Source: an uncultured Gemmatimonadales bacterium
Lineage (GTDB): Bacteria > Gemmatimonadota > Gemmatimonadetes > Gemmatimonadales > GWC2-71-9
Assembly: GCA_963828735.1 (NCBI GenBank)
Contig: CAWHFW010000005.1
Coordinates: 416,001-480,000 of the forward strand
Reading direction: 5' to 3'
Length of the DNA stretch: 64,000 nt
Shown: positions 42,158 through 48,497 of the stretch, piece after piece
Position numbering within the stretch: the stretch's first letter is position 1
How the letters are laid out: every line of letters begins with the position of its first letter
Position numbers and translations under genes: made by a program
Notes under the pieces: model-generated
The model's input: the letters and a program-made list of their open reading frames with translations, nothing else
What the model was told of the DNA's origin: nothing
Database searches by the model: none

Positions 42158-42745
42158 CTATGACGCGCGCGCCAGTCCCCGGCCAACCCGCGCCGCCCGC
42201 ACGTGCGCGAGCAGGTGAGTTCCATCGGATCGAAAGCACGGAAACAGATTGAGGTAGCCCGTGAGGTTGCAGGCGATGGCGATCAGCAGCAGATCGCCCA
42301 GCGTGGTGCCGAGGGCGGGTTGGCCCATCCAATCCCACCATCCGGACAGCAGCAGCGCGCCGGCGAGGTTGCTCAGGCCCCCGGCCGCGGAGATGATGGG
42401 TGCCCGCCAGGCCTCCGGCCCCCACTCGAACCGCCAGCGGCCTCCCACGATGTCTCGATATCCGATGGCAGATGCGTCCTCATCGAGTAGCTGGACGGCG
42501 CCGACAAACGGCAGCAATGCCAGATGCACCCGGCAATCCGCGATCGTGCCGCGCCAGAGGATAGGACCGACGCCCAGGCGGACGCCCCAGATACGGACGC
42601 CAACCAGCAGCGCGGCGCAGGCGTGGCCCAGCTCGTGGAACAACAACGCGATCCAGGAGGCCGCGACGGCGGCCAGAACGGTGTTCGCCACCTGCCCCAG
42701 GATGGCGCCGAACAACGGGTCGATCTCCATCACGTGCGCGTGCAT
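42158..42745 (-). CDS. Site-2 protease (M50) family membrane metallopeptidase
   Basis: HELGH, AAGGLSN, NLFP..SDG; GGAGG RBS. Confidence 0.8.
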   Translation of the reverse strand: MHAHVMEIDPLFGAILGQVANTVLAAVAASWIALLFHELGHACAALLVGVRIWGVRLGVGPILWRGTIADCRVHLALLPFVGAVQLLDEDASAIGYRDIVGGRWRFEWGPEAWRAPIISAAGGLSNLAGALLLSGWWDWMGQPALGTTLGDLLLIAIACNLTGYLNLFPCFRSDGTHLLAHVRAARVGRGLARAS

Positions 42746-42959
42746 TCGTTCGAACCTCCACGTCCTTTCGGCGCATCACGTTCAACGCTGAACCTGGGAG
42801 CTCCGACTCTCTTCAGCGTAATCCAATTCGCGCGGGCCTCGCCGGGTTCCAACTCACACCGCGTGGCGTCCACGAGGGGTCACGTCGTCTCGGACGATCG
42901 ACCCTCCGGGCTGGAACTCGTCGCTCGGCAGTCCGCGGGGTGAGCCTGATCACACTGGT

Positions 42960-42988
42960 TTGACGCGCGGCTCGTTATCTAGTACCGT
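42960..42988 (+). promoter_or_regulatory. Candidate sigma70 promoter TTGACG-N17-TACCGT
   Basis: Consensus-like hexamers with 17-nt spacer, 16 nt before ATG 43005. Confidence 0.6.
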
Positions 42989-43004
42989 CCCATTGGAGAC
43001 AATC

Positions 43005-43349
43005 ATGGACGACTTTGAAGCGCAGACGTACTGCCAGCGTGCGCAACTCGAGCTGGTGGCCCTGATCATGCATCAGCGCAGGCCGCGCGGCCGGTTGCGC
43101 CGGGATCCTGTGTTGCTGCGGCGCTTCATCTCGGTCGTGCTCGGCGGGGGACCGCCCGCGCACCTGCTGCAGGGTGGCCCATGGAAGATCGGAACCAAGC
43201 CGCTCAAGAAGCCCGGACGCGGCGGACTGGACTTCATCCCGCTCGTCCAGCGCGGCGACACCACGATCATGGTCTCGACGCCGCAGGAGGCCGAGGACAT
43301 GGTCGCATTCCTCAACTATTGCGGGATGGACGAGTTCTCCGGCCGCTGA
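43005..43349 (+). CDS. Hypothetical protein
   Basis: GGAGA RBS and promoter upstream; no recognised domain. Confidence 0.65.
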   Translation: MDDFEAQTYCQRAQLELVALIMHQRRPRGRLRRDPVLLRRFISVVLGGGPPAHLLQGGPWKIGTKPLKKPGRGGLDFIPLVQRGDTTIMVSTPQEAEDMVAFLNYCGMDEFSGR

Positions 43350-43354
43350 TCTGC

Positions 43355-43383
43355 TTGACCGCATCGCCCCAGCTTCCTACGTT
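43355..43383 (+). promoter_or_regulatory. Candidate sigma70 promoter TTGACC-N17-TACGTT
   Basis: Consensus-like hexamers, 17-nt spacer, directly upstream of the riboswitch. Confidence 0.7.
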
Positions 43384-43399
43384 GGAACCACTACCTCAA

Positions 43400-43498
43400 A
43401 GTGAAACGCATACCCGGCGAAAGCCGGTGACGCAAAGCCACGGGTCCTCGACGCCCGCAGGGATCTCCCTGCGAGCACCACGACCGCCGAGCTACCGC
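43400..43498 (+). ncRNA. GEMM-I / c-di-GMP-I class riboswitch aptamer (variant)
   Basis: GCATAC-CCGGC-GAAA-GCCGG-T-GACGCAAAGC..CGGGTC..GAC.GCCGAGCTACC follows the GEMM-I architecture; in a 5' UTR. Confidence 0.85.
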
Positions 43499-43582
43499 AG
43501 ACTCGCTCGCCGAACGTGCGCCCGAGCGAGCCGAGGCGTTTGGTCCCTGCACGCAATTCTCCCCAGCGGAAAGGATGCGGAC

Positions 43583-44404
43583 ATGTGGTGTCTCGCACGC
43601 GGGCGTGCCGCGGCGTGGGCCGCGGCCTTCGCGATGGTGCTGGCGATCGGCGGTTGCAGCGACGACAGTGAGGACAATGGCTCGGTGGGACCGGACGCGA
43701 GTCCGAACCTCCCGACGCTGGATCAGGTCAAGGCGCTCCTCGATCCGATCGTGGACTCGGCCAACAACGGAGGGTTCAACCTCCAGATGTGGGCCACGAT
43801 CGTGGATCGAAGCGGCATCGTTCGCGTCGTCACCTTCTCGGGCACCGCCGAGGACGATCAGTGGCCCGCCTCCCGGGTCATCTCCGCCCAGAAGGCGAAC
43901 ACGGCGAACAGTCTCAGCCTGGACGGGCTGGCGCTTTCCACCGCGAATCTCTACAGCGCCGTTCAGCCGGGCGGGAGCCTTTTCGGCCTGCAGGAGAGCA
44001 ACCCCGTAAATCCGGACGTCGCGTACGGCGGAAACGCCGACGACTACGGGACGGCCAACGACTTCATGCTGGGGAAGCGAATCGGCGGAGTGAACGTGTT
44101 CGGCGGAGGACTGGCGCTCTACGACGTCAGCGGGCAGGTCATCGGCGCCCTCGGCTTGAGCGGGGACACCTCGTGCGCCGACCATACCATCGCGTGGAAG
44201 CTGCGGCACGCGCTGCTGCTCGACTACGTCCCGGGAGGCGTCGACCCCGCCAGCGGCACCGACAACATCGTGTTCGACATCGACGGCAGCGGCCAGAGCG
44301 CCAGCGGATGGGGACATCCCACCTGCCCGCCGGATCCGGCGGCGGTCGTCGCGATCGGGGAAGCCCTCCCGGTCACCCACCCGGTCAGAACCTCGACACC
44401 CTAG
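43583..44404 (+). CDS. GlcG/HbpS-type (haem-binding family) exported lipoprotein
   Basis: IGGC lipobox; TIVDRSG, ISAQKANTA, VFGGGLAL, IGALGLSGD. Confidence 0.8.
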   Translation: MWCLARGRAAAWAAAFAMVLAIGGCSDDSEDNGSVGPDASPNLPTLDQVKALLDPIVDSANNGGFNLQMWATIVDRSGIVRVVTFSGTAEDDQWPASRVISAQKANTANSLSLDGLALSTANLYSAVQPGGSLFGLQESNPVNPDVAYGGNADDYGTANDFMLGKRIGGVNVFGGGLALYDVSGQVIGALGLSGDTSCADHTIAWKLRHALLLDYVPGGVDPASGTDNIVFDIDGSGQSASGWGHPTCPPDPAAVVAIGEALPVTHPVRTSTP

Positions 44405-44410
44405 CCGCGA

Positions 44411-44441
44411 TCGCGGGGCCTCGCCTCAGGAGGCCCCGCGA
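44411..44441. terminator. 12-bp perfect hairpin between convergent genes
   Basis: TCGCGGGGCCTC / GAGGCCCCGCGA, 7-nt loop; no U-tract. Confidence 0.55.
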
Positions 44442-44457
44442 CGCCCCGGAGAGCGGC

Positions 44458-44982
44458 TCAGCCGCCTCCGGCGGACTCCGACCGCCCGCCGCCCTGCTCC
44501 GCCAGCGCGGATTCGAGCCGACCGATCAGCTCCGCCTGGGCCGGGTTCATGCGTCCTCGCGCCGTCTCCGGATCGAACCACGCGCACCGGTCCACCTCGG
44601 GGTACGTCACCCAGCGTCCCGAGCCCGGTGGCCACTCGACTCGCGCCATGTTGCTGACGATGGCGCTGGCGTCCGCATCGCCCTCCCACGCCCAGGCATG
44701 CACCACCTTTCCCGCCTTCTGTCGAACGCTGCCGAGGGCGAGGAATGGACCCACGGGACGGATGCCGGTCTCCTCCACGAACTCTCGGCGCGCGGCGTCG
44801 AGCAGCTCCTCGCCCTCGTCCACGATGCCCTTCGGAATCGTCCAGGCGCCGGCGTCCCGGTCGCGCCAGAACGGGCCGCCCGGATGGGCCAACAGCACCT
44901 CGAGCCCGTGCCCGCCTCTGCGGTAGAGCAGCAGGCCGGCGCTCACGTTGGGACGGCGGCGGCGCGGAGCGGACTCACTCAA
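44458..44982 (-). CDS. NUDIX family hydrolase
   Basis: SAGLLLYR, HPGGPFW, WTIPKG..AARREFVEETG. Confidence 0.9.
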   Translation of the reverse strand: MSESAPRRRRPNVSAGLLLYRRGGHGLEVLLAHPGGPFWRDRDAGAWTIPKGIVDEGEELLDAARREFVEETGIRPVGPFLALGSVRQKAGKVVHAWAWEGDADASAIVSNMARVEWPPGSGRWVTYPEVDRCAWFDPETARGRMNPAQAELIGRLESALAEQGGGRSESAGGG

Positions 44983-46610
44983 TGCGCATCCCTCGGCGGC
45001 GCCGCGCCGCCCGTGTGACGTCGCAGCAGCAGAATCGCGGGCGAAACCACGAGGAAGCTGATCAGGAGCAGCATCCAGGCGTTGTTATAGCTCAGCATCG
45101 CCGCCTGACGCGAAACTTCCTGGTCGAGCAGCGCGAGAGCGGCCCGATGGGCCGCGTCGGGGCCATAGCCATGCGCCACCAGGGTGGCGGTGAGCGCCTG
45201 AATCCGCTCCTCCAGCAGCCGCTGTCCGGGATAGACGTTCGTCAGCAGGTCCACTCGGTGGTACTGGTTGTGGACGGTGAGATAGGTCGCGAGGATGGCG
45301 ATGCCGAACGAGCCGCCGAGCTGCCGCGCGAGGTTGATGAGTCCCGCCGCCTGCTGGGCCTCGCTCGGCTTGAGGCTGGCGTAGGCGACGTTGTTGATCG
45401 GCGTGAACAGGAAGCCGAGCCCGGCGCCGCGCACGATGAGCGCGAACCGCACGTCGGGCTCGCCCGCTGCCGTCGTGAGGTGGCCCAGGTCCCACATCGC
45501 GGACACGAAGATCGCGACGCCGATCGCGATGAGGATCCGCGGGTCGACCAACGGCCGCGGGCCGTTGAGCAGGCGCCCGCAGATGAGCGCGGTGGCCGCG
45601 GTCGCGAGACCGCCCGGTAGCAGGGCGAGCCCGGTCTCCGTGGGCGTGAAGTGGAGGATGGTCTGCGTGAACAGCGGAAAGATGAACACGCCGCCGTAGA
45701 GGCCGAACCCGAGCGCCACGAACAGGAAGATGGACGCGGCCAGCTCGCGGTTCTTGAGCACCCGGAAGTTCACCACGGGGTGCGTGTTGCGCGGCGTGAG
45801 CTCCCACCAGACCATGGTGATCAGGCACCCGGCCGCCACGATCGCCAGACGGAGGATCAGCGGGTCGGAGAACCAGTCGTCCTGATTGCCCTCCTCGAGC
45901 ACATACTGAAGCGCGCCGAGGCCCACCGTGAGCAGGCTTATGCCGAGCCAGTCGACCCGTCCCGCCCGGCGCGTCTGGCCCGGCGGATCCTTGAGAAACG
46001 TCGTCACCAGGAAGGTCGCCGCGATGGCGATCGGCACGTTGATGAAGAAGCACCAGTTCCAGGTGTAGTTGTCCGTGATCCAGCCACCGAGCGTGGGCCC
46101 CAGGGTCGGCGCGACGATGATACCCAGCAGGAAGATGGCCTGAACCAGGCCCTGCTGTTCTCGCGGGAAGATCTGCCGAATGGTGGCCTGGGCCGTGGAG
46201 AGCAACGCCGCGCCGCCCGCGCCCTGGACGATGCGCCAGATGACGAGCTCGACCAGCGAGTGGGAGGTGCCGCAGAGAAACGAGGCGACCGCGAACAGGA
46301 TGATCGAGGCGGTCAGGTAGCGCCGGCGGCCGAACCGCTCGGTGAAGAACGCGGTCATCGGGAGCACGACCACGTTGGACAGGATGTACCCGGTGCTCAC
46401 CCAGCTGATCTCCTGCTGGGTCGCTCCCAGATTGCCGGCCATCTGCGGCAACGCCACGTTCACGATCGTGGTGTCGAGCACCTCCATGATGGCGGCGGTG
46501 ATGAGACCGAGGAGGATGAGCCAGCGGGTGCTCCCGATGCGCTCGGCTTCGTCGTCGTGGGGGGCCGGCCTGGCCGTGGGCTGCGGTTTTTCGATGGCGT
46601 CCGTGGTCAC
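44979..46610 (-). CDS. DHA2 (EmrB/QacA) MFS efflux transporter
   Basis: EVLDTTIVNVALP, WVSTGY, APTLGPTLGG, FFINVP. Confidence 0.93.
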   Translation of the reverse strand: MTTDAIEKPQPTARPAPHDDEAERIGSTRWLILLGLITAAIMEVLDTTIVNVALPQMAGNLGATQQEISWVSTGYILSNVVVLPMTAFFTERFGRRRYLTASIILFAVASFLCGTSHSLVELVIWRIVQGAGGAALLSTAQATIRQIFPREQQGLVQAIFLLGIIVAPTLGPTLGGWITDNYTWNWCFFINVPIAIAATFLVTTFLKDPPGQTRRAGRVDWLGISLLTVGLGALQYVLEEGNQDDWFSDPLILRLAIVAAGCLITMVWWELTPRNTHPVVNFRVLKNRELAASIFLFVALGFGLYGGVFIFPLFTQTILHFTPTETGLALLPGGLATAATALICGRLLNGPRPLVDPRILIAIGVAIFVSAMWDLGHLTTAAGEPDVRFALIVRGAGLGFLFTPINNVAYASLKPSEAQQAAGLINLARQLGGSFGIAILATYLTVHNQYHRVDLLTNVYPGQRLLEERIQALTATLVAHGYGPDAAHRAALALLDQEVSRQAAMLSYNNAWMLLLISFLVVSPAILLLRRHTGGAAPPRDAH

Positions 46611-46682: not shown

Positions 46683-47156
46683 TCAGCGTGGCCAGGCCCC
46701 CAGCAGCCGGCGCGCCACGATCAGCTCACCGAGATGGAAGGCCGTGTGGTCGAGGACCAGCAGGATCTCGCGCAGATATGTCTGCCCGCTCCCGTGCGGG
46801 ATGGTGGCCGCGAGGTCGATGGAGGTGTCGCGCGCCAGCGCCTGAAGCGCGGCGCGATCCTCCCCGACCTTCCGCACACTCGTGTCCCAGGCGGCCTCCG
46901 ACGGTGGGGCCGGCGACTTCGGCCAGTAGTCGTCCGGCCAGGTGATCTCCTCATAGTCCGGGTTGCGGCAGAAATCCAGGATGTCGTGCTGAGTAATCCG
47001 AATGTGCTCGAGGAGCTGCCAGGGCGAATAGGGCAGTCCGGCCGGCGTGCGGCTGCGGAGCGGCGGCGCGAGGTCGGCGACCGCGTCATCGAACGTCATA
47101 TGGGCCTCGCCCCATGCGAGGCTTCGGGCGAGATGGTCTCGAAAGTCCTGGTCCAC
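46683..47156 (-). CDS. DinB family protein
   Basis: EAH, SPWQLLEHIR, DHTAFHLGE. Confidence 0.85.
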   Translation of the reverse strand: MDQDFRDHLARSLAWGEAHMTFDDAVADLAPPLRSRTPAGLPYSPWQLLEHIRITQHDILDFCRNPDYEEITWPDDYWPKSPAPPSEAAWDTSVRKVGEDRAALQALARDTSIDLAATIPHGSGQTYLREILLVLDHTAFHLGELIVARRLLGAWPR

Positions 47157-47234: not shown

Positions 47235-48497
47235 ATGCTGCACGTGCCCGACTTGGAGCGAAAGCTCGACACCCTGATCACCTTGGCCCAGGACGACCGG
47301 GAGGGGCCGCCAACCCCGCCCCGCCTCCGCCACGCGCGGCAGTCCGGCGCGCTCGGGCCGCTCAACATTCGTCGCCTCCGGTCCGGCGGACGGGAAACGC
47401 GTCTGCTGCGAATCTTGATGACGAACGCGTGCAGCTACAACTGCCACTACTGCCCCATGCGCCGGGACCGCAACATGCCGCGCACGCTGCTCAAGCCCGA
47501 GGAGCTGGTGCGCATCTTTCTTGGCGCCCTGCGGCGCGGCTGGGTGGACGGACTCTTCGTCACCACGGGCATTCCGAGCAACCCCGTGAAGGTGATGGAC
47601 AACCTCATCGCGGCCCTCGAGCTCCTCCGCGAGCGCCACGGGTTCACGGGGTATATCCACGTCAAGCTGGTCGCCGGCGCGGAGCCGGCGCAGATCGAGC
47701 GCCTTACCGCGCTCGCGAGCCGGGTGTCACTCAACCTCGAGGCCCCGTGCGGACAGAGCCTGTCGCGCATCGCGCCGGAGAAGAGCCTGCCCGTCGCCAT
47801 CGAAAATCTCGAGCGTGTGCGCGCTCTGGTGCTCGAGGAGCGCACGGCCCGGGCCCATGGCCGGCCGGGGGATCCGCTGCACCCCGGTGGGGTCGCGGGC
47901 ATCACGATGCAGTTCGTCGTGGGCGCCACGCCGGACACCGATCGCACGCTCATCGAGACGGTAGGCCGGCTGCAGGCCCGCGGTGGCATCCACCACGCGC
48001 ACTTCGCGGCGTTTCGCCCGATCAAGGACACGCCGATGGAGGGGGTGCCGGCGGCGCCGGCGCTCCGCGAGCACCGGCTGTATCAGGCAGACTATCTGCT
48101 CCACGACTACGGCTTCGGCGCGGAGGAGGTCGTGTTCGAGCCCACCGGCAATCTGCCGCTCGGCGTGGATCCGAAGACCGCGTGGGCCCTGGCGCATCCC
48201 GAGCGATTTCCGGTCGAGGTCACACGCGCGGACCGGGAGACGCTGCTCCGGGTGCCCGGCATCGGCCCGGTGGCCGCGCGCCGGCTCGTCACCGAGCGCA
48301 GCGGCGTCACGCTTCGCGGGCTCGCGGACCTGCGGGGACTCGGCGTGGTCACGACGCGCGCCGCGGGATTCCTGACGCTGCGCGGACGGAAACTGCAGAC
48401 CACTCGGTGGACCGAGCAGCTCGGCTTCTGGGCGCCGGAGGAGGAGGCGGGGCGCTATCACCTGACCTATGAGGTGAGCCCCGGGACGTTCCGGTAA
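47235..48497 (+). CDS. Putative DNA modification/repair radical SAM protein with helix-hairpin-helix (TIGR03916-like)
   Basis: CSYNCHYC, FTGYIHVK, REHRLYQADYL, LLRVPGIGP; GGAGG RBS. Confidence 0.88.
   Translation: MLHVPDLERKLDTLITLAQDDREGPPTPPRLRHARQSGALGPLNIRRLRSGGRETRLLRILMTNACSYNCHYCPMRRDRNMPRTLLKPEELVRIFLGALRRGWVDGLFVTTGIPSNPVKVMDNLIAALELLRERHGFTGYIHVKLVAGAEPAQIERLTALASRVSLNLEAPCGQSLSRIAPEKSLPVAIENLERVRALVLEERTARAHGRPGDPLHPGGVAGITMQFVVGATPDTDRTLIETVGRLQARGGIHHAHFAAFRPIKDTPMEGVPAAPALREHRLYQADYLLHDYGFGAEEVVFEPTGNLPLGVDPKTAWALAHPERFPVEVTRADRETLLRVPGIGPVAARRLVTERSGVTLRGLADLRGLGVVTTRAAGFLTLRGRKLQTTRWTEQLGFWAPEEEAGRYHLTYEVSPGTFR

Follow-up and report, generated by a model that had tools for sequence, protein, structure and literature searches.

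The window analyzed here, a stretch of 64,000 nucleotides (nt) of contig CAWHFW010000005.1 from an uncultured Gemmatimonadales bacterium, carries a riboswitch aptamer of the cyclic di-GMP (c-di-GMP)-I or GEMM-I class upstream of a gene for a GlcG/HbpS-like predicted lipoprotein. Position 20 of this class is the textbook switch between recognition of c-di-GMP and of 3',3'-cGAMP (cyclic GMP-AMP), and annotation assigns ligands by a G/A rule at this position; in this aptamer, it is a C. The fold, the three pocket bases C20, A47 and C92, their selected conservation, a covarying downstream stem (P4) and an anti-aptamer strand are observed. On balance, we lean to the view that the RNA belongs to a rare C20 subtype of GEMM-I that acts as a weaker, c-di-GMP-binding and probably bispecific sensor, likely controlling the translation of the HbpS-like gene. 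Its ligand would be a guanine-containing purine cyclic dinucleotide, likely c-di-GMP and probably 3',3'-cGAMP as well, and a new ligand molecule is unlikely. This view is favored because C92 is kept, the regulon of C20 aptamers is an ordinary one, and position 20 interconverts among the four bases. No binding data were found for any C20 aptamer, and the ligand preference is one that we infer.

RF01051 (c-di-GMP-I) is the sole Rfam match of the whole window (cmscan; score 50.5 bits and E 6.4e-07, with the cut-off at 35), and the alignment is free of gaps across the 5' half of the aptamer. Numbering follows Vc2 of Vibrio cholerae, the prototype of the family, and was transferred via the Rfam alignment, without direct alignment to the Vc2 sequence itself. 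The roles of the positions are taken from PMC6140456 and PMC4744006. The aptamer consists of the following elements:

43397..43499, + strand: c-di-GMP-I (GEMM-I) aptamer, RF01051.
43401..43403, + strand: 5' strand (G14-U15-G16) of a short P1, predicted partner 43496-43498, register shifted by two.
43407, + strand: C at position 20, facing the consensus G that precedes the pairs G21-C46 and C22-G45.
43408..43433, + strand: P2 with a GAAA tetraloop; its C44 (43431) pairs with G83 (43486) (Rfam and leader alignments).
43434, + strand: A47, ligand-contact base, retained (Rfam alignment).
43436..43493, + strand: P3 with a variable distal extension, i.e., the hairpin 43456-43473 (Rfam and leader alignments).
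43495, + strand: C92, retained (Rfam alignment).

Besides a score above the cut-off, the RNA thus has the hallmarks of the family, i.e., P2 with a GNRA tetraloop, P3, the interhelical C44-G83 pair, A47 and C92. It has neither the G20 that marks c-di-GMP-selective members nor the A20 of the cGAMP-binding GEMM-Ib type. Position 20 reads the ligand's alpha nucleobase at its Hoogsteen edge (PMC6140456), C92 is the Watson-Crick partner of the beta guanine, and A47 contacts the ligand (PMC6140456; PMC4744006). An earlier annotation made from the letters of the window alone (hereafter, the sequence-only reading) had proposed this combination of C20 with retained A47 and C92, and the Rfam alignment bears it out. 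Reads or orthologues could have revealed a G at 43407. However, contigs of the DNA runs X5 and X6, which come from two studies and are not marked as source, read the C identically with 0 differences, a contig of the RNA-library run X16 keeps it despite 13 differences elsewhere, and all eight orthologues that could be read have it. The X16 contigs begin upstream of the promoter, and no sign of transcription of the leader can be taken from them; nor does a lack of coverage carry any meaning. An assembly error is ruled out by the independent DNA runs and the orthologues.

The sequence-only reading had also described an extra hairpin in P3. It is present where claimed and is better drawn as seven pairs with a 4-nt loop, but it is not extra: its sequence is not conserved among leaders, other forms occur in most paralogues, and it represents the ordinary variable distal P3 extension of the family, so that it was rejected as a novelty. 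In an alignment (A1) of 21 distinct leaders, the textbook register of P1 forms pairs at 21/21, 13/21 and then 3-4/21 leaders, and only G14-C93 always pairs, whereas the register shifted by two gives three pairs, in 21/21, 18/21 and 21/21 leaders. No P1 pair shows changes on both sides. Natural pocket variants with families of their own are c-di-GMP-I-GGC (RF03167) and c-di-GMP-I-UAU, members of the same clan, CL00126. Four orthologues score best against RF03167 (46-57.2 bits), but they stay below its cut-off of 59 and keep A47 where that family has a G, and the match in the window itself goes to RF01051. The combination of C20, A47 and C92 has no family of its own among these matches or among the clan members named in PMC12452182.

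Homologues of the HbpS-like protein were found in 33 of 36 genomes of the same genus and in none of 24 genomes of other families, and among 30 such loci fetched, the aptamer is confined to the closest group. For sampling independent of the aptamer, the gene directly upstream of the cassette was used as the query and its 30 best loci were taken:

43005..43349, + strand: open reading frame (ORF) of 114 aa ahead of the cassette, serving as synteny marker; neither Pfam nor NCBIfam gives a match.

In 15 of these loci, the HbpS-like gene comes next; the other 15 are without the cassette, the majority of them apparently, by eye, with the NUDIX gene directly next. The 15 syntenic copies comprise seven intact aptamers, one with the 5' half only, four remnants and three without any. 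In all eight copies with a readable P2, position 20 is C. A metagenome scan in which position 20 was left free and the neighboring bases were fixed gave C in 15 of 15 copies (two of them identical), and the same leader type is present in records titled Gemmatimonadales. The conservation of C20 in orthologous leaders that the sequence-only reading had asked about is thus found in both samples.

Among the 21 pairs formed by the seven intact orthologues, 18 are distant, and in these the 64-nt core of the aptamer is 86-98% identical, compared with 33-54% at four-fold sites of the neighboring gene and 18-59% in the promoter spacer. Positions 14-20, A47, C92 and the C44-G83 pair are invariant in the leaders, while stems and spacers vary. 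P2 and 5' P3 positions were partly set by the search pattern, but 3' P3 and G83 were free, and C92 is invariant in 21/21 leaders though it lies outside the pattern. The clade is further characterized by its junction, with G14-U15-G16, mostly U24 and the shifted P1. The constant C20 of the syntenic and metagenome copies and the identity of the core show that C20 is under selection in this clade. Since the seven orthologues were chosen as intact, this selection applies where the aptamer is kept and does not imply a constant need for it. The possibility that C20 is a one-off decay mutation was rejected on account of the metagenome copies, the syntenic orthologues and the conservation of the core.

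Two related observations were made. A C20 aptamer also precedes a more distant HbpS paralogue (L224, L225 and L228), where the leader has outlived a swap of the gene behind it. Furthermore, in this genus positions 24 and 43 appear by eye to vary together: C24 goes with C43 or U43 in most paralogues, while U24 or A24 mostly occurs alongside A43, as in this cassette.

Downstream of the aptamer, the leader contains elements of a putative expression platform. The features between the promoter and the end of the gene are as follows:

43355..43383, + strand: predicted sigma-70-type promoter, TTGACC-17-TACGTT (-35 at 43355-43360, -10 at 43378-43383, 17-nt spacer).
43502..43530, + strand: P4 hairpin.
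43515..43553, + strand: predicted pseudoknot between the P4 loop (43515-43520) and 43548-43553.
43535..43545, + strand: predicted anti-aptamer strand, able to pair with the 3' strand of P3.
43568..43575, + strand: Shine-Dalgarno-like sequence, 7 nt ahead of the ATG at 43583.
43583..44404, + strand: gene for the GlcG/HbpS-like protein of 273 aa, a predicted lipoprotein (Cys25).

A consensus promoter scan called 0 promoters here, as 43355-43383, with 8/12 matches, lies below its threshold. Nevertheless, the promoter that the sequence-only reading had placed there is supported by its orthologues: the 17-nt spacing is kept in all seven intact ones and the hexamers are conserved, while the spacer averages 44% identity. 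The stem at 43502-43530, which had been put forward as a possible expression platform, is confirmed as well. In the 21 leaders, 85.7% of the cells of P4 are paired and five of its eight pairs show changes on both sides. It is part of the platform, as the sequence-only reading had supposed. In RNAalifold analysis of the leader alignment, as well as in the single-sequence fold, the 3' strand of P3 pairs with a G-rich strand downstream, the anti-aptamer. The strand complementary to the P4 loop sits 28 nt further downstream; 78.2% of the cells of the predicted pseudoknot are paired, with two-sided changes in just two cells according to the covariation tool. By eye, one of its positions is U-A in seven leaders and G-C with a bulge in eight, and in the latter eight the strand that binds the P4 loop also complements the purine-rich stretch of the ribosome-binding site. 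No intrinsic terminator was found by a terminator scan of 42500-45500. Termination was consequently rejected as the platform at this locus, though paralogous epoxide-hydrolase leaders do carry a stem with a U tract.

These elements suggest a mode of action. Without ligand, the 3' strand of P3 would pair with the anti-aptamer, leaving the strand at 43548-43553 free to help mask the ribosome-binding site. With ligand, the aptamer would hold P3, and the P4 loop would capture 43548-43553 in the pseudoknot, thereby withdrawing the anti-Shine-Dalgarno strand and turning translation on. The odds that the switch works in this direction are about even. Compared with the free ensemble, leaders constrained to the folded aptamer are less favorable by 1.1-11.0 kcal/mol, a cost that the ligand would have to cover.

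How a C at position 20 could serve a c-di-GMP-type sensor can be judged from work on other members. G20 contacts the alpha guanine as the donor of two hydrogen bonds, whereas A20 pairs with an alpha adenine, and with guanine when protonated, and binds both ligands (PMC6140456). Position 20 was described as 'a selectivity factor ... rather than a hard filter', and GEMM-I aptamers can bind with little P1, a stem suggested to tune affinity (PMC9262584). The G20U mutant of Vc2 still binds c-di-GMP in the low micromolar range (PMC4686816), and the losses of affinity are said to lie mainly in the off-rate (bioRxiv 617340). Because C92 should fix the beta guanine, c-di-GMP, cGAMP or a G-pyrimidine hybrid remain as ligands. 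On its smaller ring, cytosine shows the same donor/acceptor pattern as adenine, and should thus be A-like but shorter. Accordingly worded for this aptamer, C92 would read the beta G as usual, and C20 would lose both hydrogen bonds of G20 but offer an amino donor and a ring-nitrogen acceptor arranged as in A20. With a longer reach, it would then fit adenine's Hoogsteen edge directly and, when protonated, guanine's as well. A further drop in affinity would come from the short P1. As a net effect, the gene would answer only when the signal is high, or would respond to two signals as one combined pool.

Several observations weigh against this proposal. Mutation of G20 in Vc2 caused a 30,000-fold loss, as cited by PMC4744006, and the G12U substitution in Vc1 abolished the in vivo response to c-di-GMP depletion (PMC4744006), so that a C20 aptamer with a P1 of 3 bp may bind too weakly to switch. 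Nested folding of the 21 leaders, with a program that does not allow pseudoknots, gave no consistent shift in the accessibility of the ribosome site between free and aptamer-constrained states (0.32 vs. 0.33 here), and the covariation of the pseudoknot is weak. Among the syntenic copies, 7/15 have a decayed or absent aptamer and one more lacks the 3' half. With regard to the translational ON switch, two of the three leaders before the more distant HbpS paralogue have a short, different platform, and a terminator is absent. Finally, the strict fixation of C20 argues for a specific role of C rather than a relaxed site.

Some of these points would suit an RNA that no longer responds to ligand in the cell's concentration range and persists as a structured leader, for stability or default translation, or is a disappearing relic. 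The short P1 and the large affinity losses of G20 mutants (PMC4744006) speak for such an RNA. Damage or loss in 8/15 syntenic copies, the P4-loop pairing that by eye is still discernible in the four remnants, and the lack of a switch in nested folding point in the same direction, as does the whole-leader fold, which is no better than that of shuffled sequences (z -1.54). However, the unpaired pocket and junction bases (positions 14-20, A47 and C92) stay invariant amid changing stems and spacers, as does the C44-G83 pair. A leader of purely structural function could do without these bases, and the anti-aptamer strand has been kept as well. We therefore consider a ligand-blind leader quite improbable.

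Another explanation takes C20 as an additional way of achieving selectivity for cGAMP. In its neutral form, C20 would read the alpha adenine like A20 does, which would make the RNA a GEMM-Ib-like 3',3'-cGAMP sensor, and an Asn-type GGDEF protein would be the unrecognized synthase of the genus. The shared donor/acceptor pattern of C and A, as derived from the A14-A-alpha geometry in PMC6140456, is compatible with this explanation. Moreover, A20 is common here (5 of 12 aptamers in this genome and 40 of the 150 genus matches listed), and C20 co-occurs with A20 on like scaffolds in one Geobacteraceae genome and in the Actinoplanes genus. Candidate enzymes exist, too. Among 10 GGDEF matches in this genome, the intact sites have six Asp, one Ser and one Asn. 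Ser in combination with a GGDEF motif is the Hypr signature (PMC6456294), and the membrane-anchored protein that has it (L263:874-2217; domain at G000:C5:2314234-2314695) is a predicted cGAMP synthase. The Asn-type protein (L264:730-2439, - strand; GGDEF domain at G000:C5:1083629-1084099; orthologues L298-L327) has N-terminal 4Fe-4S and Fe-hydrogenase-like domains and Asn, instead of Asp or Ser, at the position that reads the nucleobase. It is present in 38 of 61 genus genomes, with Asn in 30/30 proteins read, and is a candidate redox-sensing cyclase.

The supply of cGAMP nevertheless speaks against this route. The Ser-type enzyme has no close relative in 101 of the 102 other genomes of the genus, and the sole match has Asp; it was rejected as the cGAMP source of the clade, being nearly private to this genome. 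In five genomes with an intact cassette, the 28 GGDEF sites read (30 loci of 47 matches) have 25 Asp, three Asn and no Ser or Thr. In five C20-bearing genomes of other groups, 25/25 sites read (30 loci of 62 matches) have Asp. A literature search found no support for Asn as a cGAMP signature, and C20 aptamers precede PilZ and Asp-type GGDEF genes. Hence, selectivity for cGAMP appears unlikely. The same assessment, a low one, holds for a broader version, in which C20 defines a third GEMM-I specificity subclass in many phyla that would read 3',3'-cGAMP or another G-containing hybrid via a C-A reverse-Hoogsteen-type pair and a shortened junction, with the Fe-S-sensing Asn-type GGDEF protein providing the signal in Gemmatimonadales. 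If true, it would extend cGAMP-type signaling to soil lineages without a known synthase.

The distribution of C20 outside the cassette is more easily combined with a weaker c-di-GMP-type sensor. This genome has 12 RF01051 matches, nine of them above the cut-off, with position 20 being G in five, A in five, C in one and U in one. A hand tally of 150 of the 161 pattern matches in 103 genomes of the genus gave G 90, A 40, C 15 and U 5, or G 90, A 39, C 14 and U 5 without two rows (one C, one A) from the unpublished genome G065, on which no other result depends; nine of the 15 C20 rows are this cassette. A scan of 151 genomes from the phylum that contains a Paenibacillus record (Bacillota) yielded 393 matches, of which the 150 listed have G in 137, A in 11, C in two (the seed genome contributes one) and U in none. 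The exact C20 pattern occurs at at least 120 GTDB loci, the titles of which include Bacillota, Chloroflexota, Actinomycetota, Planctomycetota, Armatimonadota, Geobacteraceae, Omnitrophota and others. By heuristic placement, C92 is kept in at least 108 of 121 GTDB C20 aptamers, and several of the 10 non-C calls look mis-registered by eye. In 118 C20 aptamers, the junction is 5 nt long in 65, 4 nt in 29, 3 nt in six, 3 or 5 nt in three and 6 nt in three, with 12 unassigned; this tally covers C20 aptamers alone and, with no fair G20 control, carries no claim of enrichment.

The genes behind these aptamers are ordinary ones. Among 104 ORFs downstream of GTDB C20 loci, 29 have Pfam matches, which fall to the customary kinds of gene (membrane, motility, secreted enzymes) and include type IV pilin leaders (3), a flagellar rod protein, PilZ, GGDEF, response regulators (2), S8/M10/C1/M73 proteases (8), transglutaminase, CAP and sortase. 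The choice of these ORFs was heuristic; 40 loci have short flanks, and 27 of 131 candidate ORFs were dropped because they repeated others or were alternative frames. One genome has a C20 aptamer flanked by an Asp-type GGEEF gene on one side and a PilZ gene on the other (L157, L288; G128:C3:22723-23365). Position 20 is labile at other loci. At 14 hand-picked epoxide-hydrolase loci of the genus, which share one terminator-type platform, it is G in five, A in five, C in three and U in one, and at least six changes are needed on the coding tree. An Actinoplanes-genus scaffold with 19 aptamers has G in 10, C in five and A in four. Considering the spread over many phyla, the ordinary neighbors and the lability at the epoxide-hydrolase and Actinoplanes loci, C20 is a rare, recurrent natural variant that arose many times without a gene association of its own.

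This pattern also bears on the idea that C20 senses a different molecule, i.e., a pyrimidine-containing cyclic dinucleotide (c-GMP-UMP or c-GMP-CMP) or another guanine nucleotide signal. Variant ligands were previously hidden within this riboswitch class (PMC5473149), in this clade C20 is fixed alongside a changed junction, and an Asn-type GGDEF protein is conserved. However, C20 has no distinct gene association, position 20 is labile elsewhere, and GGDEF sites were argued to select against pyrimidine NTPs (PMC6456294). A SMODS (CD-NTase) domain was found in one of five cassette-bearing genomes searched, being absent here and in 3/4 others (genomes 73-97% complete). The cyclic di-AMP synthase, diadenylate cyclase, is present in 5/5, but C92 should exclude a beta adenine. 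A different molecule is therefore very improbable. Of the two options that the sequence-only reading had left for C20, tuned affinity fits the evidence, and altered specificity in the sense of a new molecule fits poorly, considering the retained C92, the ordinary genes, the labile position 20 and the scarcity of SMODS.

In comparison with known systems, the RNA resembles Vc2 in its GNRA-loop P2, P3 with receptor, C44-G83, A47 and C92 and in lying upstream of an exported-protein gene. It differs in having C instead of G at position 20, U at position 24 and a P1 of 3 bp in a probably shifted register, and its hairpin-plus-pseudoknot platform is a predicted ON switch, whereas Vc2 is a translational OFF switch (PMC9262584). 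With the GEMM-Ib cGAMP riboswitches of Geobacter (Gs1761 and Gm0970), it shares the fold, C92 and a non-G position 20 with an amino donor and a ring-nitrogen acceptor; in contrast, it has C rather than A, and the cassette genomes share no Ser/Thr Hypr GGDEF. Cd1 of Clostridioides difficile and the Geobacter pilM riboswitches are also GEMM-I members that bind their ligand with little or no stable P1 (PMC9262584), but Cd1 has a purine at position 20. A full-text literature search yielded no paper on natural C20 members or on c-di-GMP riboswitches of Gemmatimonadales; key primary papers and supplements outside its reach may list C20 members or G20C affinities. Smith 2010 reportedly measured point mutants of G20, Kellenberger 2015 is said to have tabulated position 20 across the family, and Weinberg 2017 reportedly screened pocket variants for distinct gene associations, from which the GGC and UAU families originate. 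If so, C20 members may be on record without a name.

A selected natural C20 subtype at more than 100 loci makes the G/A rule incomplete. It also provides ready test RNAs, including variants with G, A, C or U on almost the same scaffold inside a single genome and gene family, and the predicted hairpin-plus-pseudoknot platform is a second testable feature. If of low affinity or bispecific, C20 would be a natural allele for threshold tuning, useful for biosensors; if cGAMP is favored, the map of cGAMP signaling would widen and C20 would point to a new type of synthase.

The HbpS-like protein matches PF03928 (E 6.7e-14; 52.5 bits against a cut-off of 25), with weak matches to PDB entries 6bws (EfgA) and 2a2l. 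Relative to this GlcG/HbpS family, it is longer and has a lipobox-like N-terminus, of which Cys25 is invariant in 5/5 aligned orthologues, and two conserved C-terminal cysteines. A role in haem or redox processes would follow from the family label only. The link of the riboswitch to an exported haem/redox-type protein, as the sequence-only reading had it, thus holds for the domain and the lipobox-like Cys25, but is not special: most other GEMM-I copies in this genome precede ORFs that, by eye, have signal-peptide- or lipobox-like starts. Of the 103 genus genomes, 78 have homologues of the 114-aa protein, and multiple copies are frequent. Its gene is usually found beside the NUDIX gene, and half of the 30 best loci have the riboswitch-HbpS cassette between the two. 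Further features of the surroundings are:

42158-42745: M50 peptidase gene, flanking the cassette.
44405..44449, strand not assigned: strong G+C-rich hairpin (-33.5 kcal/mol) in the gap where the HbpS-like and NUDIX genes converge; it lacks a U tract and was not called as a terminator.
44458-44982: NUDIX gene, flanking the cassette.
46686-47147: DinB-family gene.
47235-48497: radical SAM/helix-hairpin-helix gene.

In the window, no link to the riboswitch was seen for the M50, NUDIX, DinB-family or radical SAM neighbors. Sequencing runs containing this DNA are from soil or rhizosphere where labeled.

Some further aptamers deserve mention. On viral contigs, a loose pattern gave 11 C20 matches, none with an Rfam match, and these were rejected as chance; a stricter pattern gave nine matches in eight loci, with G in eight and A in one. 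A family-level draw around Actinoplanes gave six matches, and an Atlas search with the protein downstream of the Actinoplanes aptamer gave none. The C20 aptamer between the GGEEF and PilZ genes (L157/L288) is a good candidate RNA for testing c-di-GMP binding by C20. A hydrolase-associated subgroup of aptamers (L007, L072, L086, L338 and L347), which includes the U20 copy of this genome, has a G after the C92 equivalent, and by eye its 5' strand could pair with C92 itself, closing the beta pocket. L001 and L004, a near-identical pair of A20 aptamers from separate contigs of this genome, have an altered P2 loop and pocket region. Five promoter-riboswitch-gene units lie within 8.5 kb at L265 (G000:C5:1048203-1056704), four of them tandem G20 units and one an A20 unit on the opposite strand. 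In every unit, the aptamer precedes a small ORF whose start resembles a signal peptide or a lipobox. A tandem pair of C20 aptamers is found in an Erysipelotrichaceae record (L131).

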